Source: Candidatus Faecisoma merdavium (GTDB lineage: Bacteria > Bacillota_I > Bacilli_A > RF39 > UBA660). Taken from it: 55,012 nucleotides of DNA. The translations under genes and the position numbers were made by a program. Shown here piece after piece: positions 14,701 through 55,012 of this stretch. Position 1 is the first letter of the stretch; each line of letters begins with the position of its first letter. Under the pieces are notes generated by a model. It did not search any database, was not told where the DNA came from, and saw only the letters and a program-made list of their open reading frames with translations. The stretch covers positions 1 through 55,012 of the forward strand of contig DVJX01000056.1 in the NCBI GenBank assembly GCA_018716405.1, given 5' to 3'.

Positions 14701-14740
14701 TACAATTCACCCCTTTAGCTATTTAATTATAGCATTACCT

Positions 14741-14969: not shown

Positions 14970-14989
14970 ATTTACCAAATTAAATAGTT

Positions 14990-16091: not shown

Positions 16092-16434
16092 TGGTGGAGT
16101 CGAGGGGAATCGCACCCCTGTCCGAAAATATAAAGTTTAAAGTTCTACAAGTTTAGATAATTTGTTAATGTCCTAAATAATAATAAACTATCAAAATTTT
16201 ATTTAGTAATTTCTATATTAATTCATTAATAATCCTAGAAAAAAACTATTAATATAACTCACTAATCGAGCCTCTTTTATATTTCGTGAGTAAAAATATA
16301 AAGAAGCAGCCTTCTAATCTATTAAGCGAAAGCTAATTGATTTCTGTTTCCAGTTATTTTTAAATTTGAATGTATCGTATATCTTACGACTTGCCCTTTA
16401 AAAATTATTATTCCCGTCGAAACTAAGCGACCCC
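16092..16434 (-). ncRNA. ssrA: tmRNA (SsrA)
   Basis: 5' GGGGUCGCUUAGUUUCGACGGG and 3' GGACAGGGGUGCGAUUCCCCUCGACUCCACCA form a tRNA-like domain. An internal reading frame reads ...GGA AAC AGA AAU CAA UUA GCU UUC GCU UAA (tag ending GNRNQLAFA). Adjacent to smpB. Confidence 0.9.
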
Positions 16435-23141: not shown

Positions 23142-23180
23142 AAAATTCACCTCGTCATTATAAGTATAACATATTATTAA

Positions 23181-23855: not shown

Positions 23856-23856
23856 A

Positions 23857-26175: not shown

Positions 26176-26180
26176 TTATT

Positions 26181-28510: not shown

Positions 28511-28805
28511 GTGGAAAACACCAACCCTTCCATTTAAACTTTCTTGGATTCATATAAAAACCTATTGCAGAAGCAATTAAAGTTCTCATATTATAATAAT
28601 TTGGAACCGGCATTACTAAAAATCCTGTTATTAATGCTGGCAATAAAGCTATAATAGCGTAAACTATTTCACCTGATGGTAAAAACTTTAAAAGTAATAA
28701 AGTTATAGCTATACCAATGCCAAACATAATCAAGTCAAATTTGGTAAAAAGGCCAAAAATAAGCATTGACTTTTTCGTGTTTGCCGGTATTAAAAAATTA
28801 TCCAT
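28488..28805 (-). CDS. Two-TM PrgI/TcpE/VirB3-like protein
   Basis: 105 aa with two hydrophobic helices. Its position directly upstream of VirB4 matches Gram-positive T4SS operons. Confidence 0.45.
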   Translation of the reverse strand: MDNFLIPANTKKSMLIFGLFTKFDLIMFGIGIAITLLLLKFLPSGEIVYAIIALLPALITGFLVMPVPNYYNMRTLIASAIGFYMNPRKFKWKGWCFPHGEGKEK

Positions 28806-28872
28806 CTAATATCACACCCTTTTTTAATTATTGTTTGTTTTTCTGTTTACATTTTGTTATTTTTTTGTTTTG

Positions 28873-32531: not shown

Positions 32532-32870
32532 CTACTCTTCGTGAATTTTTTCTATGATATCTTCTATCTTTTTACCATATTCAATAGACTCATCAAACAC
32601 AAATTCTAATTCAGGTGTATGCCTTATATCAATTCTATCAGCTAATTCTTTTCTTATAAATCCTTTGGCATCATTTAAAGCTTTCATAGTTATTTCTTTT
32701 TTGTTATCATCTAATACTGTCACATATATTTTAGCATAACTTAAATCACTACTTAATTTACAATCAGTAACAGTTACAAACTTTATATCACTATCTTTTA
32801 CTTCATAAGCTAGAATATAACTAATTTCTTTGATTATATTACTAGCAATTCTATCTATTTTTACACTCAT
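32532..32870 (-). CDS. rbfA: Ribosome-binding factor A
   Basis: RIASNIIKEISYIL...VTVTDCKLSSDLSYAKIYV...RHTPELEF, located downstream of infB. Confidence 0.9.
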   Translation of the reverse strand: MSVKIDRIASNIIKEISYILAYEVKDSDIKFVTVTDCKLSSDLSYAKIYVTVLDDNKKEITMKALNDAKGFIRKELADRIDIRHTPELEFVFDESIEYGKKIEDIIEKIHEE

Positions 32871-34948: not shown

Positions 34949-34951
34949 CTC

Positions 34952-35218
34952 CTATATTAAATTTTTTAATTGTTCATAAATTTCTTTCTTAACCTCTATT
35001 TCTAAGATTCTATCTAAAATTTTACTCTTTTTAGCTTTTTCAAAAACTTCTAAATCTTTTTTTAAATAAGCGCCTCTACCATTTGCTTTTCCAGTTAAAT
35101 CAACAATAACTTCTTGATTTGGAGTTCTAACAATTCTTATTAATTCTTGCTTAGGTAACTTTTCTTTAGTCACTATACATGAACGCATTGGTATTTTTTT
35201 AACTTTCACCTTAATCAC
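34952..35218 (-). CDS. ylxR: YlxR-family (DUF448) RNA-binding protein
   Basis: PMRSCIVTKEKLPKQELIRIV...GRGAYL motif, positioned between nusA and infB. Confidence 0.85.
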   Translation of the reverse strand: MIKVKVKKIPMRSCIVTKEKLPKQELIRIVRTPNQEVIVDLTGKANGRGAYLKKDLEVFEKAKKSKILDRILEIEVKKEIYEQLKNLI

Positions 35219-36371
35219 CTACTATATTTATGCCCATCTCTTTAGCTTGTTCAGTTGTTTTTATATCTAGTTTATATTTAGTCAAACGTGACGCTAATTT
35301 TACATTTAATCCTTTTTTGCCTATAGCTAAAGATAAATTATCTTGATCAACTACAACTAATGCTTCTTGTTTCTTTTCATCTGTTACAAAAATATGTAAA
35401 TTTTTAGCTGGAGATAAAGCATTTTCTATAAATTTAGCCTTATCATTTGTATATGCTACAATATCAACTTTTTCTGGGCCTAATTCTTTCAATATATTTG
35501 CAATTCTCATTCCTTTTTCACCTATACATGAACCGATTGGATCAACATTAGGATTTTCTGAATAAACTGCAATTTTAGATCTAACGCCAGCTTCACGGGC
35601 AACGCTATAAACTAAAATAATACCTTCATTTATTTCTGGAATTTCTAATTCAAATAATCTTTTAACAAAACCATAATGATTCCTTGACAATAATATAAGT
35701 GGTCCTTTTCCGGTACTTTCAACTTTCGTTACATAAACTTTAATATTAGAACCCATTTTTATTTTTTCGCCAGGAATAATTTCTGATTTAGGTAGTATTC
35801 CTTGAGTTCTACCTAAATCAATATAATAATTTCTAACATCTTCCATAGCTACTAGACCAGTTACTAATTCATCTTGTTTATCAGCAAATTGTTCCATTAT
35901 AATATTTTTTTCAGCTTCTTTTATTTTTTGAATAACTACTTGTTTCGCAGTAGCGGCTGCAACCCTTCCAAAATCTTTAGGAGTTACTTCTTCCTCAATC
36001 GTTTCACCAACTTCAATATCAGGAACAATTTTTCTAGCTTCTTCTAAAGTTATATGAATTCTTTTATCAAATATGTAAGGTTTTTCTACTTCAATTGTAG
36101 CACCTTCTTCCTCTGATTCTGTATCTTCAACCTCAATCATAATAGGCTCTTTAGCTTCATGTTCTTCATCTAAAACTACGGTTTTAAAAGAATAAACATG
36201 AATATCACCGATTTCTCTATCTATAGCAACTCTAACATTTGTCAAAGATTTGTAATTTTTTTTATAAGCAGATGTTAATGCTAGCTCTAAAGCATCATAA
36301 ATATAATCTTCAGATATTCCCTTTTCTTTAACTAACAAATCCAATGCTTTCTTAAATTCTTTAATGTTCAA
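35211..36371 (-). CDS. nusA: Transcription termination/antitermination factor NusA
   Basis: NusA N-terminal, S1 and two KH domains. Start moved to the TTG (LNIKEFKK), 10 nt after AAAGGA and 2 nt after the rimP stop. The track's longer N-terminus would overlap rimP. Confidence 0.95.
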   Translation of the reverse strand: MNIKEFKKALDLLVKEKGISEDYIYDALELALTSAYKKNYKSLTNVRVAIDREIGDIHVYSFKTVVLDEEHEAKEPIMIEVEDTESEEEGATIEVEKPYIFDKRIHITLEEARKIVPDIEVGETIEEEVTPKDFGRVAAATAKQVVIQKIKEAEKNIIMEQFADKQDELVTGLVAMEDVRNYYIDLGRTQGILPKSEIIPGEKIKMGSNIKVYVTKVESTGKGPLILLSRNHYGFVKRLFELEIPEINEGIILVYSVAREAGVRSKIAVYSENPNVDPIGSCIGEKGMRIANILKELGPEKVDIVAYTNDKAKFIENALSPAKNLHIFVTDEKKQEALVVVDQDNLSLAIGKKGLNVKLASRLTKYKLDIKTTEQAKEMGINIVGD

Positions 36372-36372
36372 A

Positions 36373-36621
36373 TTAATCACATCCTTTCTCTTTTGAACAA
36401 ATATCCACAATATAACTTTCATCAATAAAATCAATTTTATCTAATATTGGTCCCACTAAGTCATTTACATTAACGCAATCATTAATAGTGATAAAACCTT
36501 CTTTATCAATAATTATTCTTAAAAAATTAGTATTATTTTCCTTAACATACTTTACATCATCTAGAATATAACCTAAATCTGTAATTGGTTTTTCAATTAA
36601 TTTTCTAACTTTACTTTCCAT
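36373..36621 (-). CDS. rimP: RimP, N-terminal domain only (82 aa)
   Basis: The layout matches the RimP N-domain as far as the position of the SSPG motif (ICSKEKG here). The C-terminal Sm-like domain is absent and nusA starts immediately. Confidence 0.65.
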   Translation of the reverse strand: MESKVRKLIEKPITDLGYILDDVKYVKENNTNFLRIIIDKEGFITINDCVNVNDLVGPILDKIDFIDESYIVDICSKEKGCD

Positions 36622-40546: not shown

Positions 40547-42352
40547 TTACCTTTCTAATTCCAATCTAACTCGAATATTTTCTATTGTTTTTCTTACTCT
40601 ACTTCCATTTTTATCTTTTTCAAAAATATTAAATCTTTGATTACTTATAACATCTAGTATTGTAATATAATTATCTGTATTGTTCAAATTATTATTTTTC
40701 TTAATCATTTCTTTTGTAATATCTTTTTTAGGTGTAAAATTGAATGATTTTTTGCATATAAATCTTATTAAATAAGAATCTTTTTCATCTTTCTCATTAT
40801 ATCCACCAATAATTACATAATCTATTAGTGCATCAAATATTTGTTCATCAAACTTCTCTATATTAAAAATTTTATCACTATTTAACATTTCTTTAAGTTT
40901 AATAATTCCTCTCTCAATTTCATCATCATCTTCTTTTACTAATTGTAGTTGTTCTATTTCTTTATCCATTTTCTCTATTTTATTCAATAATGTTGCTTTT
41001 TTGCTTTTAAATATTTCAGAATCAATAGTACCATCTACCATTAAATCTACCAATTTTGAAATTTTGTTTTCATATTCTATTTTATCTTCTTTTAATTTAT
41101 CTAATTTTTCTTTAGTTGTTCCATTTCTCATTGAATTTTTAACAATGTTAGAAATATTATCAATTATGTTATTTCTATTATTTGCTAATAACTGATAAAT
41201 ATCAATAAAAGCATTTTCTATTATTTCTTCTTTTACAATTTTTCCATCAGGACAATTATACTTTCCATTTTTTGAAGACTCAATACATTGCCAAGCAGCA
41301 ACTTTTTTAGATTGATTTACAAACATTGTCCTTCTGCCCAATGTTTCGCCACAAAATCCACAGCGAAGTCTCGAACTCATTGTATATTTACCTCCAACAT
41401 TTCCCAATCTTCTTCCTGTTGCTCTTGCTCCACACTTTGCTTTTAAAATTTCTTGAACTTTATCAAAATCTTCAACTGAAATAATTGCTTCGTGATGATT
41501 TGATATATAATATTTATCTTCTTCTCCATAATTAACTAATCTCCTGTGAGATATTGGATCTTGAGTAAAGGTTTTTCCTTGAAGTACATCTCCTTTGTAT
41601 TTTTCATTTGTTAATATTCCTCTTACCGTTGTTGCTCCCCATACATCTTTTCCTTTTGGACTTTTTATTCCCATTTTAGTTAATTGTTTTGCAATATAAT
41701 CAGCACCCCTACCATCTAAATACATTCTAAACATCATTTTAACAATATCTGCTTCATTTTCTTTAATTATCATTTTATTATTATCTGAATCATATACATA
41801 GCCGTAACAATTATTAAATCCTATTAATTCTCCACGTTCTTTTTTCATTTTCAACCCTAGTTTAACGTGAGATGAAATAGTTTCGCTTTCTTGTTGGGCT
41901 ACAGAACTTAATATTGTTAATAATAATTCTCCTGACATTTCCAATGTATTAATATTTTCTTCTTCAAAAAAAACTGCAACATTATTTTCTTTTAGTTTTC
42001 TCACATATTTCAAAGTATCTACAGTATTTCTCGCAAATCTGGATATAGATTTAGTAATAATCATATCAAATTTACCATTTATTCCATCGTGAATCATTTT
42101 CATAAAATCGTTTCTTTTATAATCCAAAGTTCCTGAAATTGCTTCATCTGCATACATATCGATATATTGCCATTCATCATTTGAAGATATTTTTTCTTTA
42201 TAATATTTTTTTTGAGACTCATAACTATTTAGTTGTTCTTCATTTCCAGTACTAACTCTTGCATAAGCAGTAACCCTTAATCTTTCAGTTATTAATAAAC
42301 CAGTATTTCTATCTACTCTACCATCTTTCTTTTTAATTATTTTTATATCCAT
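40547..42352 (-). CDS. Large serine recombinase
   Basis: Resolvase catalytic domain (AYARVSTGNEEQLNSYESQ), recombinase domain, zinc-ribbon cysteines (CGFCGETL...WQC...CPDG) and a C-terminal coiled coil. Start set at the second ATG (SD AAGGAA). Confidence 0.9.
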   Translation of the reverse strand: MDIKIIKKKDGRVDRNTGLLITERLRVTAYARVSTGNEEQLNSYESQKKYYKEKISSNDEWQYIDMYADEAISGTLDYKRNDFMKMIHDGINGKFDMIITKSISRFARNTVDTLKYVRKLKENNVAVFFEEENINTLEMSGELLLTILSSVAQQESETISSHVKLGLKMKKERGELIGFNNCYGYVYDSDNNKMIIKENEADIVKMMFRMYLDGRGADYIAKQLTKMGIKSPKGKDVWGATTVRGILTNEKYKGDVLQGKTFTQDPISHRRLVNYGEEDKYYISNHHEAIISVEDFDKVQEILKAKCGARATGRRLGNVGGKYTMSSRLRCGFCGETLGRRTMFVNQSKKVAAWQCIESSKNGKYNCPDGKIVKEEIIENAFIDIYQLLANNRNNIIDNISNIVKNSMRNGTTKEKLDKLKEDKIEYENKISKLVDLMVDGTIDSEIFKSKKATLLNKIEKMDKEIEQLQLVKEDDDEIERGIIKLKEMLNSDKIFNIEKFDEQIFDALIDYVIIGGYNEKDEKDSYLIRFICKKSFNFTPKKDITKEMIKKNNNLNNTDNYITILDVISNQRFNIFEKDKNGSRVRKTIENIRVRLELER

Positions 42353-42401
42353 AAACATTTCCTTTCTTGTTCGAACAATGCCATTTTATAAGAATAATCA
42401 A

Positions 42402-42569
42402 TTAATTACAATTGTGCGATTTATTTAATTGCACAATTGACTTTTTATAAGTTATCTCATCAATTATTTTCTTATTTTTTACAAGATTTAGAATTCGTAA
42501 CTGTTCAAGATAATCAACAAAATCTTTATTAAATGAAGAAGTTTTATTAACAATTATTTTTTTTATCAT
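42402..42569 (-). CDS. 55-aa ORF translationally coupled to the mazF stop (ATGA)
   Basis: MIKKIIVNKTSSFNKDFVDYLEQLRILNLVKNKKIIDEITYKKSIVQLNKSHNCN. Its ATG overlaps the MazF TGA. Below the ORF-track cutoff, and no family recognised. Confidence 0.3.
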   Translation of the reverse strand: MIKKIIVNKTSSFNKDFVDYLEQLRILNLVKNKKIIDEITYKKSIVQLNKSHNCN

Positions 42570-42922
42570 TTTATATCAAAAGTATCCTTTAATGATTTAT
42601 TGACTAAGTTGATTTCTTCTTCATTCAAACTACATAAAAATGATATTAATCTTGTTTTATCTAAAACTCTTACTTGTTCCAATAGAATAAGTGAATCGTG
42701 TGTTATTTTTTCATTTGATTTTATTTCTATATGTGTAGGTAGATAATTTTTCTTTTTTGATTTACTTGTTAAAGGAGCAATTAATACAGTTGGGCTATAT
42801 TTATTACCTAAGTTATTTTGAACAACCACCACTGGTCTTGTACCGTTTTGTTCACTTCCTATAATAGGATCTAAATTAGCATAATAAATATCTCCTTTTT
42901 TTATTACCCTATCTTCGTTCAT
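42566..42922 (-). CDS. mazF: MazF/PemK-family type II toxin endoribonuclease
   Basis: KGDIYYANLDPIIGSEQNGTRPVVVVQNN...VLIAPLTS signature. Start set at MNEDR, overlapping the upstream ORF by 14 nt. Confidence 0.85.
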   Translation of the reverse strand: MNEDRVIKKGDIYYANLDPIIGSEQNGTRPVVVVQNNLGNKYSPTVLIAPLTSKSKKKNYLPTHIEIKSNEKITHDSLILLEQVRVLDKTRLISFLCSLNEEEINLVNKSLKDTFDIK

Positions 42923-43127
42923 TTTTATTAATCTCAACTTTATAAATAGTATGTGGTGTTTCATTATTAATTAGATTTCTAATATCTAAATTGTTATTTT
43001 TTCTTAAATAGTTATCTACTAGCCCTTTAACATCTGCTTTTGCTCTTTCCATACTTGTTTGCGTATGATCCATTGTTATAATATATTCTAATTTTACAGT
43101 TACTCTGTATCTTTTACTTTTCTTCAT
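42909..43127 (-). CDS. 72-aa protein in the antitoxin position (no recognisable MazE/AbrB or RHH signature)
   Basis: Overlaps the mazF start. AGGAGG is present but 13 nt from the ATG. Confidence 0.4.
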   Translation of the reverse strand: MKKSKRYRVTVKLEYIITMDHTQTSMERAKADVKGLVDNYLRKNNNLDIRNLINNETPHTIYKVEINKNERR

Positions 43128-43157
43128 ATTAAAAATTTTTCCTCCTTATATGTAAAA

Positions 43158-43181
43158 GCACGAGATAGTAAAATCTCGTGC
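43158..43181 (-). terminator. Leader hairpin or weak terminator just upstream of the TA operon SD
   Basis: GCACGAGAU-uuuacua-UCUCGUGC followed by UUUU on the minus strand. Confidence 0.35.
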
Positions 43182-43194
43182 TAAATTTATTTTT

Positions 43195-43430
43195 ATTGTT
43201 TAAGTAACTGATATTTTTCCTCGAACCCCTCAGTCTTTGGGAAATCATCAAACGATTAAATTGCTAATTTAATCTCACAGGAATTCCACCTCCCCGAGGA
43301 TCTCTCCGGGCTGCCCCCATTGCTTTAGGCTGTGGCTAGACAGGAGTATCTTTAATACTACTATTAATCTTCGCATATTAGTTGCTAACTAATTTTATAA
43401 CCAAACAATTATCGTCAAGCGTATTTGTTA
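43195..43430 (-). ncRNA. Unclassified GC-rich structured element (candidate ncRNA or cis-regulatory leader); strand tentative
   Basis: A ~130-nt core (about 43218-43352) is far more G+C-rich than anything nearby. It has no ORF and several hand-foldable helices. See the findings. Confidence 0.35.
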
Positions 43431-43500
43431 AAGTGCTTATAATAGTAGGAACGTATTTGATGAATGTATATACAATTGTCAAAGATCTCCTGTTTCCAAC

Positions 43501-43549
43501 AAAAAAGGAAACAGTGAAAGGATGATTTATTACCCTCTCAACTGTTTCC
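43501..43549 (-). terminator. Terminator after the sigma-like gene
   Basis: GGAAACAG...(27 nt)...CUGUUUCC followed by U6 on the minus strand. Confidence 0.55.
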
Positions 43550-43581
43550 TCACTAAAACGTAAAATTTGTAGTCTAATTTG

Positions 43582-44052
43582 TTAATTTTTTAAAATTTCT
43601 TTTAATTTTTTGATTGCAATATCTAAACTGAACTTTACTGCTCTATGTGTACAATGTTCTTCTTTTGCGATTTCTTTCAGTGTTTTTTCATCAAAATAGT
43701 ACTTTTTTATTCTTCTTTTTTGTATTTCAGGAAGTAAATTAATTGCAATCATTAAATTTTCATAAGACGATTTTCTTATAACAGAATCCTCAACACTTAA
43801 AGGTTTGTTCATTATTCTTGTATTTAATTTATTGTCAGTTAGTTCCGAATGTTCTATATGCCTATCATATTCATTAAGTTCTTTTAAATCATCTAGTTCA
43901 AATCTATCCATTGCTTCATATATTTCTTTGCTAACTTGCACTTCATTATTTTTATTATTAATATCTTTAAATATTATAAAGTAAGTATTATTAATTACTT
44001 TTAACATATAAGGATTATCATTACTTTTCCTTCTTTTTGGTCTATTAACCAT
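43582..44052 (-). CDS. Sigma-70 region-4-type HTH regulator typical of Firmicute mobile elements
   Basis: C-terminal LPEIQKRRIKKYYFDEKTLKEIAKEEHCTHRAVKFSLDIAIKKLKEIL. Start set at the ATG 8 nt after GGAGG. Confidence 0.65.
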   Translation of the reverse strand: MVNRPKRRKSNDNPYMLKVINNTYFIIFKDINNKNNEVQVSKEIYEAMDRFELDDLKELNEYDRHIEHSELTDNKLNTRIMNKPLSVEDSVIRKSSYENLMIAINLLPEIQKRRIKKYYFDEKTLKEIAKEEHCTHRAVKFSLDIAIKKLKEILKN

Positions 44053-44132
44053 TCCATTTTCCTCCAATCAATTCGTTTTTTTTGAATTGATTGAAGGTGG
44101 AGATCTACATCTTATAATTATTTTTTTATAAC

Positions 44133-44177
44133 AAAAAAAACCGATTATAAAACTCGATGGTCGAGCCTTATAATCGG
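44133..44177 (-). terminator. Strong Rho-independent terminator
   Basis: CCGAUUAUAA...CUCGA-cca-UCGAG...UUAUAAUCGG followed by U8 on the minus strand. Confidence 0.7.
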
Positions 44178-44695
44178 CGTCAATAAGAACTTCAAAATAT
44201 GAATTTAATGCTTTTTGAGAGCATAAAATAGAATAGAAATTTTGTTTATAATAATAATCTTGAAATTTTCTAAACTTAATATAATACACTCTCATAATGG
44301 CAGTACTCCCCCGAGCAATGCCTCATATAAGAGTTAACGAGTATTTTTTCATTTGTACAATTCGTTTTTTTATTATCTCTTATATAATTAACCAGTAATA
44401 TTATTATCCAATAATAAAAAAGTACTGCCTAATCATTTTTATTATTTTCTATTCTTTTAAATTTATATACCCCTTTTCTCACAATATCACAGATTTGTGG
44501 CATTGCTAAAAAACAATAAAATAATCACTAAAAATTATTTAGTTGCTATAATACCATATTTTTCCTAAAAAAGTTGTCGAAATATGCCGAAAGTATGTTA
44601 TTTTTGCCTAAACGTTTTTTTTTTTGTCTAAAAGCATAAAAAAAGATGTTATATTTCAATATAAACACCTTTCTATAAACTATTTTAGTTAATTA

Positions 44696-46726
44696 TTATT
44701 CAATTCCTAATGCTTTATAAACTGCATCTTCTGGATTGTTATAAAATGATATATTAAATTTGGAAAATAAATCGCTTGGTACATTTGATATATCACTTGC
44801 TGAAGACATAGGAAGCAATATTTTCTTTGCTCCAGAATCAAAACATACTTGGAGAGTATTTGCTAATTCTTCCACTTTACTTATTGTTCCACCAATGCTC
44901 ATACTTCCTAGTATAACTAAACTGCCCTGCATTGGCTTTTTTAAGGCACTACTACACATTGCAACAAAAGATGCAAGAGAAATATCTTTTGAAGCACCTA
45001 CTCCTTGTAAATCTTCTATATGTAATAAATAATCTACATTATCAACTTGAATACTTGCACTTATACTTTTTTTATTTGCTTTGAAATAATTAAATGCTGT
45101 ATTCAATGCTTCTTTTGTTTCTCTATCAGTTCCTATACCAGATGTTGCAAATTTTCCGTGTCCACTTGGTGATTCAACTTCTATTTTAAATGTTCCTATC
45201 ATTCCAGAATTACCCCTACCTATAAAATAAGTATGTCCTGCTTTTAACATTCCCTCTGGAATAAGTTTTCCTCCCCCACTCTCTGGTACAGAAATAAACT
45301 TTTCTTCCATAGTATCTAAATCAATATAAGAAAAATGCACATCATAGAATTCCATACCACCAATTTTCTTTAATTGTTCCTTAACACGTCTTCTTCCAAC
45401 TAAAGCATAAGAAAGTATTTCTTCAAGTTCTTCTTTACTATATTCCCCATCTGGGTATAATAATTTTACAAAACCAGATACTGTCTTTCTTACTGCGATA
45501 ACATCTCTTTGATTTAGATTATTACCTAATTTAAAGTATTTATCAAAAGAATCAGAAAATGTTCTTTTTCTCATTTCTCTAAAATATTCTGATAAGTAAT
45601 CAGTAATAAATCCATATTCATCTGTTATTAATTCTGGTCGCATTTTAGGTATTTCCCATCCAGGTAAATAATAATGCATTCTATCAAAAAATGCTGAATC
45701 GTTTGCCATTTCTTTTGGAAAAGGCTCAAACAAATGAGAAGTTTTTAATAATACTTCAACACTTTGATTAATATTTCCAACAAACACCATTGAGGCATTA
45801 GCATTCTTTTCTTCTTTACCTCTTGCAAATGAGCCAGAAGCCATATAATCTTTCATTATTTGAATTCCGTCTTTGTCTTTGAAAGTTATTCCGGCAACCT
45901 CATCAAATGCCACACAATCCCACATACCAACTAAACCTATTTTCTTTTGTCCCATATTATAGAACAAGTTGGCAACTGTAGTTTGTCCACCAGATACTAA
46001 TATGCTATTAGGAGATATTTCTTTATATATGTGTGATTTTCCTGTTCCTCTTGGACCTAATTCACACAAATTATAATTATTTTCTACTAAAGGTACTGCT
46101 CTTTCTATGAAATGCCATTTTTGTATTTCAGTTAAATGTGATGGCTCTATTCCCATTGAACGGATTAAAACATCTATCCATTCTTGCTTTGTAAAGTGCT
46201 TTCTTCCCTCAAATAGTTGATTTAAGTCCATATTTGGAAGTTGTATAGGATCAAGCCCTGCTACTACAAAAGGCATTCTATGTTTATCTTGGTCATCAAA
46301 ACTATAACTTACTTTTATAATACACCATATACCACCAACTAAAAGTTTTTCATATTTACTAACAATTCCACTATCAATTAAAGCATCTTTTATTCCTAAA
46401 TTAGAAAACTCTGCCTGATATATATCTAATTTCTCATTTAATTTAACTGTTACCTTATCAATGATTGTGTATATTCCTTTTTCTTTTATTTTTGATTTAA
46501 TTTTTTCGGCTTCATCTGGTCTAACAAAGTTATCTGCTAATATCTTTTTTACTGTTTCTACTCCATCTGCAATAGCATTTTCATCATTAGTTGCACAATA
46601 CATTCCAAGTAAATATTCAAGTACATAAACAGGAACATTAGCCCCCTCTTTTATTTTCTTTGTTAAATCTTTTCTTACAACTTTACCTGCAAAGTATTTA
46701 TTTAACTTTTCATTTAATTCTTCCAC
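44696..46726 (-). CDS. brxL: BREX Lon-like protease BrxL
   Basis: The N-terminus LNKYFAGKVVRKDLTKKIKEGANVPVYVLEYLLGMYC is characteristic of BrxL. AAA-like core (GPRGTGKSH) and a C-terminal Lon-protease-like domain. GTG start 7 nt after AGGAGG. Confidence 0.9.
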   Translation of the reverse strand: MEELNEKLNKYFAGKVVRKDLTKKIKEGANVPVYVLEYLLGMYCATNDENAIADGVETVKKILADNFVRPDEAEKIKSKIKEKGIYTIIDKVTVKLNEKLDIYQAEFSNLGIKDALIDSGIVSKYEKLLVGGIWCIIKVSYSFDDQDKHRMPFVVAGLDPIQLPNMDLNQLFEGRKHFTKQEWIDVLIRSMGIEPSHLTEIQKWHFIERAVPLVENNYNLCELGPRGTGKSHIYKEISPNSILVSGGQTTVANLFYNMGQKKIGLVGMWDCVAFDEVAGITFKDKDGIQIMKDYMASGSFARGKEEKNANASMVFVGNINQSVEVLLKTSHLFEPFPKEMANDSAFFDRMHYYLPGWEIPKMRPELITDEYGFITDYLSEYFREMRKRTFSDSFDKYFKLGNNLNQRDVIAVRKTVSGFVKLLYPDGEYSKEELEEILSYALVGRRRVKEQLKKIGGMEFYDVHFSYIDLDTMEEKFISVPESGGGKLIPEGMLKAGHTYFIGRGNSGMIGTFKIEVESPSGHGKFATSGIGTDRETKEALNTAFNYFKANKKSISASIQVDNVDYLLHIEDLQGVGASKDISLASFVAMCSSALKKPMQGSLVILGSMSIGGTISKVEELANTLQVCFDSGAKKILLPMSSASDISNVPSDLFSKFNISFYNNPEDAVYKALGIE

Positions 46727-46737: not shown

Positions 46738-49281
46738 CTAGAAATCAAAATTATTTACAATAGCAATATCAATATAGAATTTTATACGAGTAGATTCTAT
46801 TCCCGTTTCTTCATCAATAATTACTAAATAATAAGGTTTATTTCTATCATAAGTAATATTTTTAAACACAAACTTTTCTCTAAAGAATCTATCTTTAACT
46901 TCAGTATTTTCATAATTTGCAATAATTGTACATTCATCAGATATTCTATTTCCATCTTCATCTTCAAAATGTAATAAGTATCTACAAGGTTTATTATTAT
47001 CATCAACATTACTATCTTGTAAAAATTCTAGATAAGTAATAGCATTTGTTATTTTTGTTGATAACCCACTGTAGGTAATTCCGACTTTTTTACTTTGTTC
47101 TGTTGTTCTTGTTGATTTAAAATCAATAACAGGTATTATTATTTCCTGAGGAAGTATTCCACCGTGAACATAATTTATGCCACTACCTTGTCTTGCAAAT
47201 ATAATATTTCCTTTAGGAATATTTACATAGCCACTATCTTTTCTAAACACATAATCTAAATTTATTGATAAAATACCTTCTTCATTAGATAGACTATCTG
47301 AATATGAATATCTTGTTTTTTGTTTTGTAGCATTTACTATCTTACTTGTTTTTTCATAACTTTCTATCTTACCTCTTTTATAGAAGAATCCGTGATCAGC
47401 AGTTATAAAAGCATTTATTCCACTAAATGTCGTATGCAAATCTCTAACTAATTTTTCTAATTCATTTATTGCTTTATCACAGGCAGTAAATATAGTATTT
47501 TCATTATGTTCTCCTACATTATCTATTGTATCGTGATAAATATATACCACTTTTTTACCAGAAAATAGTTTTTTCCATTCTAGTTTTGTCATTTCATATA
47601 AATCATCATATTTCACTGCAATAGAATCTATATTTTCTTTTTGAAGTAATAATTCTCTATCTTTTAAACTCGAAGAAACTTGTCCATCTACTAAAATGTC
47701 ATCACTATCTTTTACTCTTGACAATTCTTTATTAGGTAATAATGAAGCCATTCCTAATTTTGTATATGACGGAACAATTCCTTGCATATATCCAATATCT
47801 GATTTACTTGCAAAGTTTTTCAATTTGCTATTAAGTTCTTTTGCACATTCATATCTAAATGCATCAGATATAATAACAATTATTCTATCTTTTTTATCAT
47901 TAAATGGCTTAATATAATTTTTATAAAAATCTTTCTGCAAAGTCATACGATTAGAATCATATTTTGGCATATTCTCTATCATATCACTCCATTTAATTGA
48001 TAATTCGCTCATAAAATCATTTACATATATATTTTCAATTTTATTTTTTAAATTAATGAATATATCTTTATCTTCAATACTATCATAATAAAAATATATT
48101 TTTCTGTATAAAGTATCTACTTCATAGAAATTATCAGTATAATCTTTTGCAAATCTATCAATATCAACTATTTTTATTGCATTTTCAATACTATTTATTT
48201 TTTCAAAAAATGCTATTGAATTTTTTAACAAGTTATATTCATTTTCTAATTTTTCATACCAGTATTTATTTTCTCTTATATCTATATAATGTTTATATAC
48301 TTCATATTCACCAATACTATTGAATAATTTATCTACTATATACTTGATTATATTTTTATCAATACTTATAAAAGCATCACTCAAACAATAATCTTCAATA
48401 TCCATTCCATTAAGTAAGTCAGTGATTCCAAATTCTGTTTCTATATCCATTGATAGTTTTTCAAAATATTTTCTTGTAGTCTTATCTCTCATCAAATTAT
48501 TTATAAATACATAAACGTTAGTTGTTTTTTTAGTTAGCAAATATTTACTATATCTACTTGCTTTTTTAATATCTTTTAAACTTGTAGCAAAATATGTAAA
48601 TACTAAAGATTTATATACATCAAGTAAATCGTCATAAGAATTTGCATTAGAGCCAAAAGTATCATTAAATAAACTTAATATAAATTCTTCATTACCAAAC
48701 TTGAATAATTCTTCATATTTCTTTTCATCTTCAAAATAATATCTAATTATTTCTTTTAATATATCATCTTCATTTATTGATTTTATATTAAGCATAATTG
48801 CAGTAATAATCAAATCAATATTATCATTGTTTTTTTCTTCAATATCAAAATTTTTAAATTCTGCTTCTCTTTTTTTATTGCCAAAGAACTTGGCGTATTT
48901 ATTTATGATTTTTCTACAATCTTCTGTTAATCCCAAGTTCTTTAATCTCATAGTTGTTGAATCTGGATTAAATAATAAATCACTATTAGAAGTTTCTAAA
49001 TCCAATAAATCATTATCTATACCCTTTTTTCTTTCAAAAGGAAGATAGATAATAATATTTTTATTAAGTTCTTCTTTTTCTATATGATATCTAATCCAAA
49101 AACTATTATTATCGTACTTAATAATTTCTGTATCTTCTAATTCAAGTTCATTTATGAAATCTTCATATTCTTGTTTAGAATCATACCAAAATATTATTTT
49201 TCTTGTTCTTTTTCTTTCAGTATCTCTAGAAAAAGCACCTTTTAAAGTATCTTTTAATAATTCTAATACTTCGTCAAACAT
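46738..49281 (-). CDS. pglZ: BREX alkaline-phosphatase-superfamily protein PglZ
   Basis: PglZ-domain motifs IVIISDAFRYE and ITADHGF, ~850 aa, located between pglX and brxL. Confidence 0.9.
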   Translation of the reverse strand: MFDEVLELLKDTLKGAFSRDTERKRTRKIIFWYDSKQEYEDFINELELEDTEIIKYDNNSFWIRYHIEKEELNKNIIIYLPFERKKGIDNDLLDLETSNSDLLFNPDSTTMRLKNLGLTEDCRKIINKYAKFFGNKKREAEFKNFDIEEKNNDNIDLIITAIMLNIKSINEDDILKEIIRYYFEDEKKYEELFKFGNEEFILSLFNDTFGSNANSYDDLLDVYKSLVFTYFATSLKDIKKASRYSKYLLTKKTTNVYVFINNLMRDKTTRKYFEKLSMDIETEFGITDLLNGMDIEDYCLSDAFISIDKNIIKYIVDKLFNSIGEYEVYKHYIDIRENKYWYEKLENEYNLLKNSIAFFEKINSIENAIKIVDIDRFAKDYTDNFYEVDTLYRKIYFYYDSIEDKDIFINLKNKIENIYVNDFMSELSIKWSDMIENMPKYDSNRMTLQKDFYKNYIKPFNDKKDRIIVIISDAFRYECAKELNSKLKNFASKSDIGYMQGIVPSYTKLGMASLLPNKELSRVKDSDDILVDGQVSSSLKDRELLLQKENIDSIAVKYDDLYEMTKLEWKKLFSGKKVVYIYHDTIDNVGEHNENTIFTACDKAINELEKLVRDLHTTFSGINAFITADHGFFYKRGKIESYEKTSKIVNATKQKTRYSYSDSLSNEEGILSINLDYVFRKDSGYVNIPKGNIIFARQGSGINYVHGGILPQEIIIPVIDFKSTRTTEQSKKVGITYSGLSTKITNAITYLEFLQDSNVDDNNKPCRYLLHFEDEDGNRISDECTIIANYENTEVKDRFFREKFVFKNITYDRNKPYYLVIIDEETGIESTRIKFYIDIAIVNNFDF

Positions 49282-49292: not shown

Positions 49293-52200
49293 CTATTTTA
49301 TTTTAGCAAGTATATCTTTAAACTTATCGTAATTTACTTTTACTCCATCATCTAAATCAATACTTATTCTTTGATTTGCAATATGTGCTATTTTTTCATC
49401 ATATTCTTTTATTTCCTGTAATTTAGCATTTAAATCTGCTTGTCTTTTTTGTGCTTCTTTTTTATCTGACATAGATAATTCTGATGTAAGTTTATCATTT
49501 ACATCTACTAATAATTTTTCATAAGTCGTCTGCATTCTGTGTAAGTAGTCAAGTCTTACTTTTGGTATTAAGTTTTCATTATACCTATGCATATATACAA
49601 GTGCTTTAAATCCATTCTTTTTACCACTATCAAATAGCCAATATATTGGTCGTTTCTGATATGTTTTTACGTGGTCAGCAAAGAAATCATTTGCAAAGTA
49701 TCTCCTAATAGTATCTTCACTTGTTTCTGTTCCTTTTTTACCTAATGTTTCAGCAATAAAATCTAAATTTTCATTTAATGTTTTTTCTCCATAAACAACA
49801 CTTATAAATGTTTTAAATCTTTCAACTATATCATCACTAAAATACGCTTCATCAGTTATAGGAATAACATTATCGTTATCAACTTCAAATGATAAATCTA
49901 TTTCTTGTCCATTATCATTTAATACTTTATAATTTGCTAAACTAACACCTGCCCAACCACCGTCAGTTTTCTTACATTTTTTATATATTTCATCAAAATC
50001 TCCACCTGCATATATTAATCCCTCTTTATCAAGTGAGTATCTTCCAAACATACAACCAACTGCATAACTGATTAAAGATTTTATTTCTCTTTTTTTATCT
50101 GCTTTTCTAATAGTTATATCTTTGTCATCTACTTCTGGTGTTAATTCATCTTTTAATCCATAAATGTCTATAAATATTTCGTTAAGTTTTTCTTCATTTT
50201 CTTTTAATTTATTAAATTGCTTTTCTGTATATTCTTCCCATCTTCTAAAAGAATCATATATTTTTGATTTCATAGGAATCTCATCAGCAATAAAACAATC
50301 TTCACCAAAATTATTTTTTACTATTTTTAAATGTGTTGGTGCTACTTTAATATTAGTATCGTGCATTCCTGGCATAGAATCTATAAATTCTAATAAAGGA
50401 TGTTTTTTAAAATCCCAACTTGTTTCAAAAGAATCCCATTCCAATTTAGATATTTTAATATTACTTTTAACAATATCTTCTATTTCTTTAGTATTGTTCT
50501 TTGAAATAGGAATAGGAATATTAGCAATTACCCCAGAACTCATATTTAATGTAGGATTTAATACATCAACTATTTTTCTGACAACAACACTATTTAATAA
50601 ACCTGCCAAATAATAATAATACTTATCATTACAAAACAAAGAATGTGCTGCAACGTCAAATATCATACCTTGTGGATAACATCTGACACCAAAATTAGAT
50701 GAACTAATTAAATTCCAGGATATACATTTATAAAAATAATTTACTTCTCCTCTTGCTACATTTGGATTTTTATCTTTTATATATTCTTTTATGTCATATC
50801 CATCATTCCACCAATTTACAACACATAATTCATTACCATACCATTTTCTAAATTCACCACCATTATTATATGGGAACCATCTTTTTTTACTAATTTTTGC
50901 TTCTTCCTTATCTTTAGAGAATCTTTTTATATTATTCTTTGATACTTCATACCAATTTCTAACAAATTTATTATTGTTTGTTGTTGATAATCCTTGTCTT
51001 GGTGATCCTATATCACTTAATTTTTTAAAATCTTTAAATATTTTAAACATATTATCTGATATCCAATATGCTATTTGATAACCTGAAATATTTTCAAATT
51101 TTTTGCAAGATATTCTAAATGTATAATCTAATCTAGTTTTATTTATTGCATTTAAAAACATTTCTTTTTGCTTTTCCATCCCCCCTTTAAAATTAGTTAA
51201 TCTAAAAAATACCCCATCACTATTATCGTTATGGTTATTTAATACAAAAGTACAAATAGGAACAGTAGCCTCATCAAACGATGAATATTCAAATTGTATT
51301 AAAGAATTTATATTTAAATTATCTATAATATTTTTGCGCAATTTTTCATAAGAAGATATAAACATCCAAACAAATGGTGTCATCATTCCCAAATAACTCG
51401 AGTTATTTCCTAAAAGAGAATTTTTTATAATAAAACTTGAAAACAGATCAGTTTTTACATCGTTATATTTTTTTGAAATATATGCTTTTAAATTTTCTCC
51501 CATAACATTGCGATTCATATATGGTGGATTAGTAACCACAATATCATATTTTTGCGCTAAAATTTTTGCAATTATAATAATAGGAATTAGTTTTTCTTTT
51601 AATTCAATTCCAAATATTGTCTCATCATTATTTATATATTCTTCTAAATCTGAATAATCATAATTTTCTAAAATTAAAAGCGAACCTATTTCCTTTGCAT
51701 TTCTAAAATTATCAATTAAATACTTTGCTTGTTCTTTTATATTATTAGTAGTGATATTATCAATAGAAATTTCTGAAATAGTATTGGACTCTTGAATACT
51801 CATTATATTTAAATTTTTTACTATTTCTTTATTAAATATATTCTTGTCGTATTCTCTTGCTTTTAATAGAACAGACAATATAGATAATTGACCTGCTCTA
51901 TCATCTATATCTAATCCATATAAATTGTTTTTTAATATTAATTCAGGAATATCATTTTTATTAAATCCTGATTCCAAATAAATTTGATAAAACACTTCAA
52001 AAGCATATACAAGTATATGACCACTTCCACAGCAAGGATCTATAAATGTTATTTCTGTTGGATTTAATTTATCTTCTTTATTTTCTATATTATCTTTAAT
52101 AAAATATTTCCAATTACTTGTTATAGAAGATGAAGGATATAAGTTATTACTTGGATATAAATTGTCTGATGGATATAAAGCGCCATCTCCATTATGTTCT

Positions 52201-53003
52201 ATCCAATACCTCCCTAATGAATTCTCAACCATATATTTTACAATCCAATCTGGAGTAAATAACTGAGTAGCATAAGGTATTTCGTTTTTCTTATATGCTT
52301 TCTTTGCAGAAATAACTCTATCTTTTTCAGTTTGATTATAATATTGATATAACCATCCTATAATTTCTACTTGATTATAATTCTCTTCGGGTACTTCATT
52401 TATTACTTTTGTAATAAACCCTGTATCGTTTAACAAATTGTCTGGTATAAGAATATCTATATAATCTGTTATTCCATCAAATACTTGTGGTATTGCTCTA
52501 CCTAATTTTTTACAAACTAAAAGCAATACATATTTAAACTTTTCATTGTCATCTTTTAATTCTACATATTTTTCTTTCTTAAAATCTATATCTAAATCTG
52601 GGTTTATTAAATTAGTAAACTTTAATATTTCTGGATCTGGAGTATTATCTTTTGAAGATAATACTCTAATTCCAAGTGAGTGATTGTCTTTTGTTAAAGG
52701 AAGATAATCATTAATTTCCATATAACGAATAGCAATAATTCTATTAAACCAAGTATATGCCGCTTCCTCTATTACTTGTTCTAAAGATAATTCTTTAATT
52801 CTCTTTATTAACAATTCACGCTTTTGATATTCTTCATTTGTTAAACTTAATGAGTGTTTTTCATTAGATAAAACATAAATCTCACCTTTTTGTTCACTAT
52901 TAAATTCTTCATCAACATAAAATGTTTTAATTTTATTTCTAACTTTATCCATCAAATTCTTTCTTGATTCAATAGCAAACTTTTTTAATATCACTTTATC
53001 CAT
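49293..53003 (-). CDS. pglX: BREX N6-adenine DNA methyltransferase PglX
   Basis: ~1240 aa. SAM-binding FIDPCCGSGH and catalytic VVTNPPYM. Start set at MDKVILKK (SD GAGGAGG), overlapping the upstream gene by 8 nt. Confidence 0.9.
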   Translation of the reverse strand: MDKVILKKFAIESRKNLMDKVRNKIKTFYVDEEFNSEQKGEIYVLSNEKHSLSLTNEEYQKRELLIKRIKELSLEQVIEEAAYTWFNRIIAIRYMEINDYLPLTKDNHSLGIRVLSSKDNTPDPEILKFTNLINPDLDIDFKKEKYVELKDDNEKFKYVLLLVCKKLGRAIPQVFDGITDYIDILIPDNLLNDTGFITKVINEVPEENYNQVEIIGWLYQYYNQTEKDRVISAKKAYKKNEIPYATQLFTPDWIVKYMVENSLGRYWIEHNGDGALYPSDNLYPSNNLYPSSSITSNWKYFIKDNIENKEDKLNPTEITFIDPCCGSGHILVYAFEVFYQIYLESGFNKNDIPELILKNNLYGLDIDDRAGQLSILSVLLKAREYDKNIFNKEIVKNLNIMSIQESNTISEISIDNITTNNIKEQAKYLIDNFRNAKEIGSLLILENYDYSDLEEYINNDETIFGIELKEKLIPIIIIAKILAQKYDIVVTNPPYMNRNVMGENLKAYISKKYNDVKTDLFSSFIIKNSLLGNNSSYLGMMTPFVWMFISSYEKLRKNIIDNLNINSLIQFEYSSFDEATVPICTFVLNNHNDNSDGVFFRLTNFKGGMEKQKEMFLNAINKTRLDYTFRISCKKFENISGYQIAYWISDNMFKIFKDFKKLSDIGSPRQGLSTTNNNKFVRNWYEVSKNNIKRFSKDKEEAKISKKRWFPYNNGGEFRKWYGNELCVVNWWNDGYDIKEYIKDKNPNVARGEVNYFYKCISWNLISSSNFGVRCYPQGMIFDVAAHSLFCNDKYYYYLAGLLNSVVVRKIVDVLNPTLNMSSGVIANIPIPISKNNTKEIEDIVKSNIKISKLEWDSFETSWDFKKHPLLEFIDSMPGMHDTNIKVAPTHLKIVKNNFGEDCFIADEIPMKSKIYDSFRRWEEYTEKQFNKLKENEEKLNEIFIDIYGLKDELTPEVDDKDITIRKADKKREIKSLISYAVGCMFGRYSLDKEGLIYAGGDFDEIYKKCKKTDGGWAGVSLANYKVLNDNGQEIDLSFEVDNDNVIPITDEAYFSDDIVERFKTFISVVYGEKTLNENLDFIAETLGKKGTETSEDTIRRYFANDFFADHVKTYQKRPIYWLFDSGKKNGFKALVYMHRYNENLIPKVRLDYLHRMQTTYEKLLVDVNDKLTSELSMSDKKEAQKRQADLNAKLQEIKEYDEKIAHIANQRISIDLDDGVKVNYDKFKDILAKIK
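52131..52188. repeat. Three imperfect 18-bp tandem repeats inside pglX
   Basis: On the coding strand: TTATATCCATCAGACAAT / TTATATCCAAGTAATAAC / TTATATCCTTCA..., encoding ALYPS-DNLYPS-NNLYPS. Confidence 0.7.
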
Positions 53004-55012
53004 TATTATCCTCCTCATTCATCATCATCTTATAATGTTCAATATGTCCAAGTTTGTTAAAAATTTCTTTAAATACTTTTTTATATTTTTGAACCATATC
53101 ATCATCAAAAACAATATTAAATTCTTCATTAATATAATGTGAGTTATCGTTTATACAAGATATAAGTGATTTACACACAATCTTATCTGTACCCTCAAAA
53201 CTATCTATCGCTTTTTCATAATCTTTACTTCCAATAATATTAAAATAATATTCAAGGATTCTTCTCATTGTATTACAACAAGTATTTTTATTTATATTTT
53301 CATCTTTAAGTTCTTCCCATAGTAATTGGTATGTTGTTTCTATCGGATTTTTTTCATATTCTTTAATTGAAGATACTTCATTCTTCTTTGAAAGAACAAA
53401 GTATTTCTCTTTCGTTTCTTTTTTATTATCACGGCTTCCCCTATATACAATCTCTTTATAAAAATACACATTATGCGTTAATATAAAAATCTGTTTTATT
53501 CCATTTTCACTTTCAAAACACTCTGATATAAGTTTTTTTACAAGTGTGCTAACAATAAATAAAGAATTGCTATCAAGGCTTGAAATTGGATCATCTATAA
53601 CGAGTATTTTATCTCTCGTAATTCCAGAAGATTCATTACTTCCACTAATCAAATGATAGAAGTAAAGAAATGATATAAATCTATATTCTCCCTCACTTAA
53701 TGTTTTTCCTACATCCGTACCATCTGGTCTAACAATTTTATATGTACCTTGTATATTTCCCTCAGAGAGTTTAAAACCATCAAAACCAAATGATTTTAAA
53801 ATTTTATTTATTTCAATAAGTGATTCTGTTATACCTGTAATTTTCTTCTCATTTTCTTTTATAATATTTTTTTCTTCAAGTATTTTTCTGTTATTTTCAT
53901 TTAATTTTGTTTTCATAGGATTTAATGCTTTATCACAGTTTTCTGTTTTTACTTTAAATACACTAATCTCTGTTTCTAACTGCGAAACAATGTAATTCCA
54001 TAAATCTTCTACAAACTTATTTTTTTCATCATTAATATTTGATAATTTTTTATTGTTCTCTCTAATATTCATATTTAGATTAATTATTTTTTCATTTATT
54101 TTAGATACTATTTCTTCGGTAAAATTCAACTTTAAAACATTACTTGGAGCATTTATTTTCAACTCAATATTCTTCTTATTAATATTTGTTAAACTCTCCA
54201 ATTTTTCATAGTATAATTTCATATCAAAATCATCTTTGAAGTAACTATTACTAATATTTGCCACTTTATCTAATAATTTATCAGAAACTTCATTATATTG
54301 TGATTGTAATTCTACCAAATTATTGCATTTTTCTTCATATTCTTTATTAAAATATTCTGCTAAATGAGTAATGCTTTCGTTTAATTTTTGTTGGCAAAAC
54401 GGACATCTATTGTCGGATTTTTCAAGATAATTTAATCCTTGTTTTACCCAATCACTATTATTCAACTTGTTTATTAATTCAGAAACTGTTGTTTCGTCAC
54501 TTCCTTTAATAACTTCTTGGAAAATATTATTTTTTTCTATTGTATATAACTCATCAGCATTTACATTTTCTATTTCAGATTTTATTTGTAATTCATTATC
54601 ATATAATAATTTATAATTATTTACCAAATCACTATATTGTTTTAATTTTGTTTTATCAAGAGTTACATTTAAACACTTTAATTTAAACTTATCTTTACTT
54701 GTGCCATACCCTATAAGTGATTTAGAAAATTCATTAAATAATTTTATTTTTATTTTCCAACATTCCTCTTTTAATTCATCATCATATTGTTTCTTTTCAG
54801 ATTCTTTTTTTGTTATGTTTTTTTCTAATCCTTGATTTTCCTTTAATAAACCATCGATTGTATTTTTAGATTTGCTTATTATTTCTAAGGCTTCACCTGA
54901 ATCTTTTCCCAATGTAAATATTCCTTTTAGTTTTGAAGAATCACTAAAAAGTTCATCAACGAATTTTTTATTATATACTACCATTTCAGATTTATCGTTT
55001 TCATTTTTTTCT
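52996..55012 (-). CDS. AAA_13-family ABC/SMC-like ATPase with a PrrC/RloC-like C-terminal region, 5' partial (N-terminus beyond the window)
   Basis: The frame is open to the window edge. Long coiled coil with a CPFC (CxxC) motif. ABC signature LSEGEYRF, Walker B ILVIDDPISSLD and H-loop ILTHN. The C-terminus has MRRILEYYF...NDNSHY (RxxxE...H). Confidence 0.7.
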   Translation of the reverse strand, partial: EKNENDKSEMVVYNKKFVDELFSDSSKLKGIFTLGKDSGEALEIISKSKNTIDGLLKENQGLEKNITKKESEKKQYDDELKEECWKIKIKLFNEFSKSLIGYGTSKDKFKLKCLNVTLDKTKLKQYSDLVNNYKLLYDNELQIKSEIENVNADELYTIEKNNIFQEVIKGSDETTVSELINKLNNSDWVKQGLNYLEKSDNRCPFCQQKLNESITHLAEYFNKEYEEKCNNLVELQSQYNEVSDKLLDKVANISNSYFKDDFDMKLYYEKLESLTNINKKNIELKINAPSNVLKLNFTEEIVSKINEKIINLNMNIRENNKKLSNINDEKNKFVEDLWNYIVSQLETEISVFKVKTENCDKALNPMKTKLNENNRKILEEKNIIKENEKKITGITESLIEINKILKSFGFDGFKLSEGNIQGTYKIVRPDGTDVGKTLSEGEYRFISFLYFYHLISGSNESSGITRDKILVIDDPISSLDSNSLFIVSTLVKKLISECFESENGIKQIFILTHNVYFYKEIVYRGSRDNKKETKEKYFVLSKKNEVSSIKEYEKNPIETTYQLLWEELKDENINKNTCCNTMRRILEYYFNIIGSKDYEKAIDSFEGTDKIVCKSLISCINDNSHYINEEFNIVFDDDMVQKYKKVFKEIFNKLGHIEHYKMMMNEEDNNG

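Follow-up and report, generated by a model that had tools for sequence, protein, structure and literature searches.

RloC, known from Davidov & Kaufmann (2008) and Klaiman et al. (2012/2014), is an anticodon nuclease whose characterised representatives (GkaRloC of Geobacillus kaustophilus and AciRloC of Acinetobacter baylyi) are proteins of about 700-900 amino acids (aa). An ATP-binding cassette (ABC) head, split by a coiled coil bearing a CxxC hook, is followed by a C-proximal R-X3-E-X36-52-H motif in which a serine often precedes the histidine (PMC2610378; Davidov & Kaufmann 2008). Characterised RloC forms dimers, is governed by a hook/ATPase switch, responds to DNA ends or damage together with ATP hydrolysis, and cuts out the wobble nucleotide from tRNAs (PMC2610378, PMC3458546, PMC3874168); mutation of R692, E696 or H737 of GkaRloC abolishes its anticodon-nuclease activity (PMC2610378). 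The gene behaves as mobile single-gene cargo and is sometimes found inside restriction-modification (R-M) loci, a linkage that the original report described as rare (PMC2610378). Here we describe an RloC-like gene that sits within a complete type 1 bacteriophage exclusion (BREX) operon of Candidatus Faecisoma merdavium, at the end of a stretch of 55,012 nt (contig DVJX01000056.1, assembly GCA_018716405.1) that we refer to as the window.

PrrC-EcoprrI of E. coli, an anticodon nuclease encoded within a type Ic R-M locus, resembles the present gene product in combining an ABC ATPase with a C-terminal Arg/Glu/His domain, and its gene is likewise nested in a methylation-based defence operon. PrrC is, however, a protein of about 400 aa without coiled coil or hook, as against 724 aa with an insert of about 350 residues here. 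Its linkage to the R-M enzyme (hsdMSR) that silences it is, moreover, obligate (PMC3458546), whereas here the association is facultative and the neighbours are brxC and pglX. PARIS (AriA/AriB), in the BREX locus of Salmonella D23580, is comparable as an ABC-ATPase-based, tRNA-cleaving abortive-infection module nested in type 1 BREX; unlike the single protein described here, it consists of two proteins, an OLD-type ABC ATPase and a Toprim nuclease, and it has a known trigger, Ocr. According to earlier proposals, PARIS may act as a fallback should Ocr-type inhibitors disable BREX; the Salmonella copy was inactive in the reported tests (PMC11341690). Rad50, Lamassu LmuB and SMC proteins share the ATPase-head fold with a protruding coiled coil, and profiles of the Rad50 hook match weakly, but these proteins lack the C-terminal R/E/H domain and act with separate nucleases (Mre11, LmuA). 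Genes embedded in BREX loci have been catalogued, and embedded ABC-ATPase systems discussed as back-ups upon Ocr inhibition (Payne et al. bioRxiv 10.1101/2024.01.29.577857). According to a survey from 2026, BREX loci contain 'auxiliary and backup effectors', among them HEPN RNases and PARIS (PMC12839542).

The 5' end of the RloC-like open reading frame (ORF) is cut by the window edge (55012), and the first 53 codons, which include the Walker A motif, lie outside. The translated part comprises 671 uninterrupted codons on the minus strand, from 55011 to 52996, with a TAA stop at 52998-52996. The missing 53 N-terminal residues, with the Walker A sequence GSNGSGKT, are supplied by P0001, a protein of 724 aa that is 99% identical over the whole fragment and was recovered at full length in loci L001-L008 and L089. 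Residue numbers used here (K35, C259, R636 and so on) are those of full-length P0001. The gene and its parts are:

52996..>55012, minus strand: candidate RloC-like ABC ATPase/anticodon-nuclease gene; the 3' 2016 nt, encoding residues 54-724 of 724 plus the stop (ORF and translation, Pfam, PADLOC).
54394..54405, minus strand: CPFC motif, C256-P-F-C259, candidate zinc hook in the middle of the coiled-coil insert (read from the sequence).
53473..53700, minus strand: C-terminal half of the ABC head, with LSEGE at 53700-53686, the Walker B/D-loop DDPISSLD at 53595-53572 and the H-loop His at 53475-53473 (THN).
52999..53355, minus strand: all-helical C-terminal domain, residues ~606-724, predicted anticodon nuclease (motif and AlphaFold2 model).

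Direct reading places R636, R637 and E640 at 53265-53251 (R636 at 53265-53263, E640 at 53253-53251), within MRRILE at 53268-53251, and S677-H678 at 53142-53137, at the end of an NDNSH that finishes at 53137; the spacing is R636-x3-E640-x37-S677-H678. An initial annotation of this DNA had recognised an AAA_13-type ABC/SMC-like ATPase with CPFC, LSEGE, DDP and H-loop, and each of these motifs is present in the sequence. It had also pointed to an R-x3-E...H arrangement spaced as in PrrC and RloC, and R-x3-E-x37-S-H indeed fits the published RloC motif.

With high confidence, the gene product can be assigned to the RloC family on its sequence, as a hook-bearing, Rad50-like ABC ATPase fused to a helical, predicted nuclease domain. 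It matches Pfam AAA_13 with an E value of 4.9e-141 over model positions 57-712 of 713. The best PADLOC match, a direct hidden Markov model membership, is to the candidate system PDC-S06 (PDLC04890, E 2.2e-215, positions 58-726 of 732), six further models of which also match. PDC-S06 is a phage-defence candidate that came out of a guilt-by-embedding screen in which BREX, DISARM and type I R-M loci were surveyed (Payne et al. bioRxiv 10.1101/2024.01.29.577857); the PDC candidate set was itself defined from genes embedded in such systems and was incorporated into PADLOC; in the accessible portion of that preprint the designation 'PDC-S06' does not occur, and RloC is found only in lists of ABC-ATPase defence systems. 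The PADLOC PrrC match of the whole protein is weaker (E 6.5e-16), covering residues 438-667 of the translated fragment and positions 142-353 of the 372 in the model. Among homologues of about 40% identity, several carry the JGI/NCBI name 'wobble nucleotide-excising tRNase', which denotes RloC. No NCBIfam model was found for the protein, and a single-sequence search of the PDB returned no relative, marginal ones being met only with a profile. A match to PADLOC Lamassu LmuB (E 2.5e-14) was set aside as an identification, there being no LmuA-like partner and the likeness being restricted to the ATPase and coiled coil. A tblastn search of plasmids for PrrC returned only RloC-like genes of about 740 aa beside resolvases, and no PrrC.

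Conservation was assessed both by aligning 87 homologues, which share 38-92% identity, and in a second set of 80 relatives, one per species, drawn from many phyla at 33-49% identity (counts for the latter are out of 81 sequences). In the first alignment the Walker A residues, C256/P257/C259, LSEGE, DDP, H566, R636, R637, E640, N674, S677 and H678 are invariant. The same motif residues are kept in 80-81 of the 81 distant sequences, where R, E and H are present in every one and S in 80; the Glu-to-His spacing is 37 in 79. The protein thus carries the ABC motifs (Walker A, signature, Walker B/D-loop and H-loop), the CxxC-hook insert and the R-X3-E-X36-52-(S)H motif by which RloC is recognised. 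When published residue numbers are compared, K35, C259, D527, R636, E640 and H678 are collinear and similarly spaced with K44, C291, D572, R692, E696 and H737 of GkaRloC; the present protein is shorter (724 versus 804 aa) and differs in residing in type 1 BREX, where its gene overlaps pglX. A further motif at the extreme C-terminus, G-H-x-x-H-Y-x-M-M-M (residues 709-717, window 52999-53050), is strongly conserved in the family: H712 is found in 80 of 81 sequences, and Y713, M715 and M716 are invariant in alignment A1. This motif was not met in the portions of the RloC literature available to us. The ratio of nonsynonymous to synonymous substitution rates (dN/dS) between copies is 0.09-0.35, with 0.09 between embedded copies of 91% identity; the gene is under purifying selection.

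The full-length AlphaFold2 model, with a mean predicted local distance difference test (pLDDT) score of 82, consists of an ABC head, a pair of long helical arms that flank CPFC, and a C-terminal domain made of helices. The motif is close to the centre of the modelled helical insert of about 350 residues. The best PDB matches of this model by Foldseek are the heads of Rad50, Lamassu LmuB and SMC (E 5e-8 to 1e-4) and of JetC, and the family profile weakly matches the Rad50 zinc-hook structures 1l8d and 6zff (E 0.011 and 0.018) over residues 223-305, exactly across the CPFC region. Modelled separately, the C-terminal domain is all helical (pLDDT 76). A profile of this domain matched 1257 representative clusters, and among the 150 matches listed it forms the C-terminus of proteins of about 720-750 aa. 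Short matches to the profile, examined as possible PrrC sequences, turned out to be pieces of PDC-S06 proteins.

Downstream of the RloC-like gene, the window contains the remainder of the operon:

52996..53016, minus strand: coupling junction, with the Shine-Dalgarno (SD) sequence GAGGAGG at 53016-53010, a 6-nt spacer and ATGGATAA at 53003-52996.
49293..53003, minus strand: pglX, the BREX methyltransferase gene, 1236 codons from its ATGGATAAA start (Pfam Eco57I/N6_Mtase/MmeI_Mtase; PADLOC PglX).
46738..49281, minus strand: pglZ (Pfam PglZ, E 3.3e-51; PADLOC PglZ, E 1.5e-233).
44696..46726, minus strand: brxL, a Lon-like protease/ATPase gene and the last of the operon (Pfam BrxL_N, BrxL_ATPase, Lon_C; PADLOC BrxL).

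The upstream part was recovered from the P0001 loci, in which brxA, brxB and brxC precede the gene. In the 99%-identical loci (L001, L002, L089), every contig that is long enough has the order brxA-brxB-brxC-[RloC-like]-pglX-pglZ-brxL, with a 23-nt gap between brxC and the RloC-like gene and an 8-nt overlap of the latter into pglX. BrxC therefore sits just upstream in near-identical loci, in agreement with the initial annotation's view that the gene preceding pglX is not BrxC. The TAA of the RloC-like gene and the ATG of pglX are merged in ATGGATAA, and the pglX SD lies inside the RloC-like ORF, in AATGAGGAGGATAATAATGGATAA. Both the overlap and the internal SD, which the initial annotation had already reported, are real and conserved in relatives of 65-99% identity. 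The same junction was found in L001, L089, L095, L090, L093 and L094, and also in L131, where a RhuM gene takes the place of pglX. An alternative pglX start given in the ORF list, an in-frame ATG 15 nt upstream at 53018, was rejected, the ATGGATAAA at 53003 being the start called in L001; in BREX loci free of the insert, pglX begins at the same ATGGATAAA behind its own GGAGG.

No terminator-like site was found on the coding strand from brxA to pglX in L001. Shuffled sequence gave more promoter-like matches than the real one (98.8 versus 66), and no internal promoter can therefore be claimed. From the gene order, the shared strand and the lack of terminator-like sites in that interval, we conclude that the RloC-like gene is part of a complete BREX operon, with which it is very probably co-transcribed.

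Some observations on pglX itself were made along the way. An exact-sequence look-up of the window pglX gave no match. In L089 (pglX at 7092-10595), four proteins (BrxC, the RloC-like protein, PglZ and BrxL) share 99% identity with their window or L001 counterparts, against only 61% for PglX; in L095 (pglX at 12153-15635) PglX is 66% and BrxC 89% identical. Alleles of pglX thus appear to have been swapped within otherwise identical operons, presumably with a change of target specificity. On one metagenome contig (L006:3756-7291) pglX is split, residues 1-243 and 226-1127 matching separately about 100 nt apart, which could reflect a duplication, a frameshift or an assembly artefact.

We compared the positions of relatives of the RloC-like protein. 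Copies sharing 99, 91, 70, 68 and 65% identity each have brxC before them and pglX after them. In contrast, lineages of 75% and 71% identity are free-standing in the chromosome, between capsule-synthesis genes and the suf operon, and a neighbour-joining tree nests these free copies inside the embedded ones; within the clade of at least 54% identity, location in BREX looks like the ancestral condition, from which the free one was derived. The embedded copies end in ...NG*, encoded by the overlap, whereas the free copies end earlier; the NG tail is present in 11 of 20 homologues of at least 54% identity. A 55% copy in L131 (8628-12178) is found between pglX and pglZ, directly behind 348 nt duplicated from the 3' end of brxC, and its stop overlaps the RhuM start by way of the same ATGGATAA used with pglX elsewhere. 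This suggests that the RloC-like cassette moves by recombination, taking brxC sequence along. A copy of 54-55% identity (L132:8729-11160) is preceded only by an 82-aa C-terminal relic of BrxC; the locus has no other BREX gene, and an SMC_N/AAA_23 gene follows; the case resembles that of the hsdR relic reported in 2008 beside G. kaustophilus rloC.

Among the 80 species-representative relatives, one adjoins BREX: the 40%-identity copy in L014, directly after brxL. The immediate neighbours of the distant relatives are otherwise mixed: 5 of 74 upstream genes encode HsdS, in agreement with the rare R-M linkage given in the original RloC paper (PMC2610378), and assorted other defence genes occur. 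Across these distant members (loci L009-L088) no single neighbour is commoner than DUF2130, upstream in 4 cases and downstream in 5 (9 of 145 neighbours), and the two genes may form a two-gene module. Relatives of 49% identity (L009:1392-5639 and L133:8001-12248) lie between an upstream YunG-UDG fusion gene and a downstream RNase_T-BRCT gene; in L001 (2217-5138) a YunG-UDG gene and a Fic gene lie upstream of brxA. RloC-like genes have been described as linked to Fic/Doc and RhuM (Anantharaman et al. 2013, PMC3710099).

The BREX operon was also followed independently of the RloC-like gene. More than 100 BrxC clusters were found at 82-99% identity, and three of them (97, 90 and 88%) were looked up. 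In the 97%-BrxC operon (L137) pglX follows straight after brxC, and genes of 294 and 289 aa are placed between brxB and brxC (5227-6964). The 90%-BrxC operon (L138) has a 216-aa gene between brxC and pglX (10546-11196), together with a 76-aa gene and RhuM between pglX and pglZ (14788-16033), while the 88%-BrxC operon has the canonical gene set. No trace of the RloC-like gene was found in any of these three operons; the 76-aa ORF before RhuM in L138 was considered as a relic of it and rejected. L131 carries genes of 149 and 266 aa between brxC and pglX (3705-4947). With the exception of RhuM, the junction genes of these related operons have no Pfam match on record. Because sister operons either have no such gene or hold different ones at this or another junction, the junctions of BREX operons in this lineage act as slots for alternative cassettes, of which the RloC-like gene is one.

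Taking these observations together, we consider it probable that the gene provides an autonomous, RloC-type second layer of defence, co-inherited and co-expressed with BREX as a swappable cassette and not needing BREX to silence it. The gene would be transcribed with the BREX operon, and translation of pglX would be coupled to termination of the RloC-like ORF. By analogy with RloC of G. kaustophilus and A. baylyi, nuclease dimers would be kept inactive by their own hook/ATPase switch until released by a DNA-linked infection signal, such as DNA ends or damage combined with ATP hydrolysis. The nuclease would then excise the wobble nucleotide in the anticodon loop of tRNA, so that translation would stop and the infection be aborted.

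Several observations weigh against this preferred explanation. Within the clade of at least 54% identity, most lineages of known context reside in BREX or carry a BREX relic, with conserved junctions; this fits some functional tie to BREX, which the explanation plays down. The nuclease activity and the tRNA target are, furthermore, both predictions. The C-terminal 150 or 114 residues alone gave no match to the PADLOC PrrC model, so that the whole-protein PrrC match rests on the ATPase part. The AlphaFold2 model of the domain had no significant PDB match by Foldseek (best E 1.4), the HEPN toxins 7bxo and 5yep appearing only among its weak matches (E 2-4), and the predicted catalytic histidine falls in a low-confidence loop of the model.

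The first of these observations bears on the possibility, raised by the initial annotation, that the protein is a guardian of BREX in the manner of PrrC: a nuclease held inactive by PglX or BrxC that would fire once BREX is disabled by an inhibitor from the phage, for example Ocr. We regard this as unlikely. In its favour, the gene sits within the operon and its translation is probably coupled to that of pglX; the embedding is ancestral in the closest clade, with the brxC-3'/start and ATGGATAA junctions conserved at 65-99% identity; and the L014 relative represents an independent BREX association. Ocr, additionally, binds PglX, and PARIS in Salmonella BREX has been proposed for just such a role (PMC11341690; Payne preprint). 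Yet the free 71-75% copies nested in the embedded clade are still under purifying selection, another copy has survived next to a defunct brxC relic, the gene is missing from close BREX relatives, and 79 of 80 species-level relatives do not adjoin BREX. Characterised RloC silences itself through an internal switch (PMC3458546), and the hook and ATPase elements of that switch are fully conserved here, although an interaction in trans is possible all the same. The selected free and relic-flanked copies, the gene-free sister operons and the intact internal switch therefore argue against a required external silencer. Of the earlier proposal, an RloC-type (and hence PrrC-related) ATPase inside a complete type 1 BREX stands, while PrrC-like silencing by, or dependence on, BREX is not supported. 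A looser role as a second layer behind BREX is plausible and has been suggested in general terms for BREX-embedded cassettes (Payne preprint; PMC12839542; PMC11341690). A functional link is possible in view of the ancestral embedding, the conserved junctions and the independent brxL-adjacent relative.

A related alternative, which we also hold to be doubtful, is that the clade represents a subgroup of RloC specialised for BREX and wired to it, sensing either the loss of PglX or BrxC (for example through Ocr-like binding) or DNA structures that BREX leaves on phage DNA. It is hinted at by the ancestral embedding, by the junction retained at 65-99% identity, by the reuse of ATGGATAA with RhuM and by the brxL-adjacent relative. 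If true, the operon would possess a built-in, tRNA-cutting suicide layer whose expression is tied stoichiometrically to that of PglX through the conserved overlap.

A protein of the same family with a different target or trigger, in which the C-terminal effector does not act on tRNA anticodon loops or the sensor responds to something other than DNA ends, appears to us rather improbable. The PrrC and RloC nuclease domains have been assigned to the HEPN superfamily (PMC3710099; Anantharaman et al. 2013). The canonical HEPN R-x4-6-H is absent from the C-terminal domain, in which the histidine is instead preceded by N/H-D-x-S in both alignments. This absence, the want of a significant fold match and the additional invariant H-Y-x-M-M-M motif are consistent with this alternative, as is the failure of double-strand breaks alone to activate RloC in its natural host (PMC3458546). 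Against it, the R/E/H set that GkaRloC needs for anticodon-nuclease activity is invariant and has the published spacing.

It is very improbable that the protein is an integral accessory of BREX, a DNA-binding ATPase of the SMC/Rad50 kind that would help BREX to recognise or hold phage DNA and have no suicide function. The structural likeness to Rad50, SMC, LmuB and JetC and the probable co-transcription with BREX are compatible with this role, but the conserved C-terminal R/E/H domain is not found in Rad50 or SMC, the gene is dispensable in sister operons, and most family members have no BREX nearby. That the gene is a decaying passenger, inserted by chance and devoid of function, is scarcely credible: cassettes do come and go at BREX junctions, but the ORF is intact, as are all catalytic and ATPase motifs, and the dN/dS of the 91%-identity embedded copies points to selection.

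The window has a G+C content of 25% throughout. Downstream of brxL (40547-44295) are a 75-aa ORF, a gene for a 161-aa sigma-70 region-4 helix-turn-helix protein, a MazF/PemK toxin gene (42566-42964) and a large serine recombinase gene (40547-42358), and the BREX island may be part of an integrated element or lie at its margin. A conjugation or type IV secretion-type cluster at 21015-30723 encodes a VirD4/TraG coupling protein, a TraG-type P-loop ATPase, a TrbL-like protein and a CHAP/SpoIID hydrolase; it adjoins the housekeeping genes nusA and infB (32867-36434). A transfer-messenger RNA gene (tag GNRNQLAFA) is located at 16092-16434 and a tRNA-Arg(TCT) gene at 5865-5941.

Both RloC itself (2008) and embedded back-up effectors in BREX were already known; what is added here is a specific RloC gene as a translationally coupled BREX cassette. 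In the accessible portions of the Payne preprint, the 2026 survey (PMC12839542) and the Salmonella PARIS paper (PMC11341690), RloC in BREX is not named. The value of the locus is that of a specific, testable example, and not of a new principle. The comparative data show how such cassettes move, by swapping at conserved BREX junctions and carrying pieces of brxC with them, and the same lineage lends itself to asking whether embedded cassettes have a functional link with the operon that hosts them or are simply inherited together with it. The natural trigger and biological role of RloC are unsettled and the restriction step of BREX, a common defence, is still unclear; the coupling of an RloC-like gene to pglX offers a natural system in which to ask whether RloC responds to the activity of BREX or to its inhibition.

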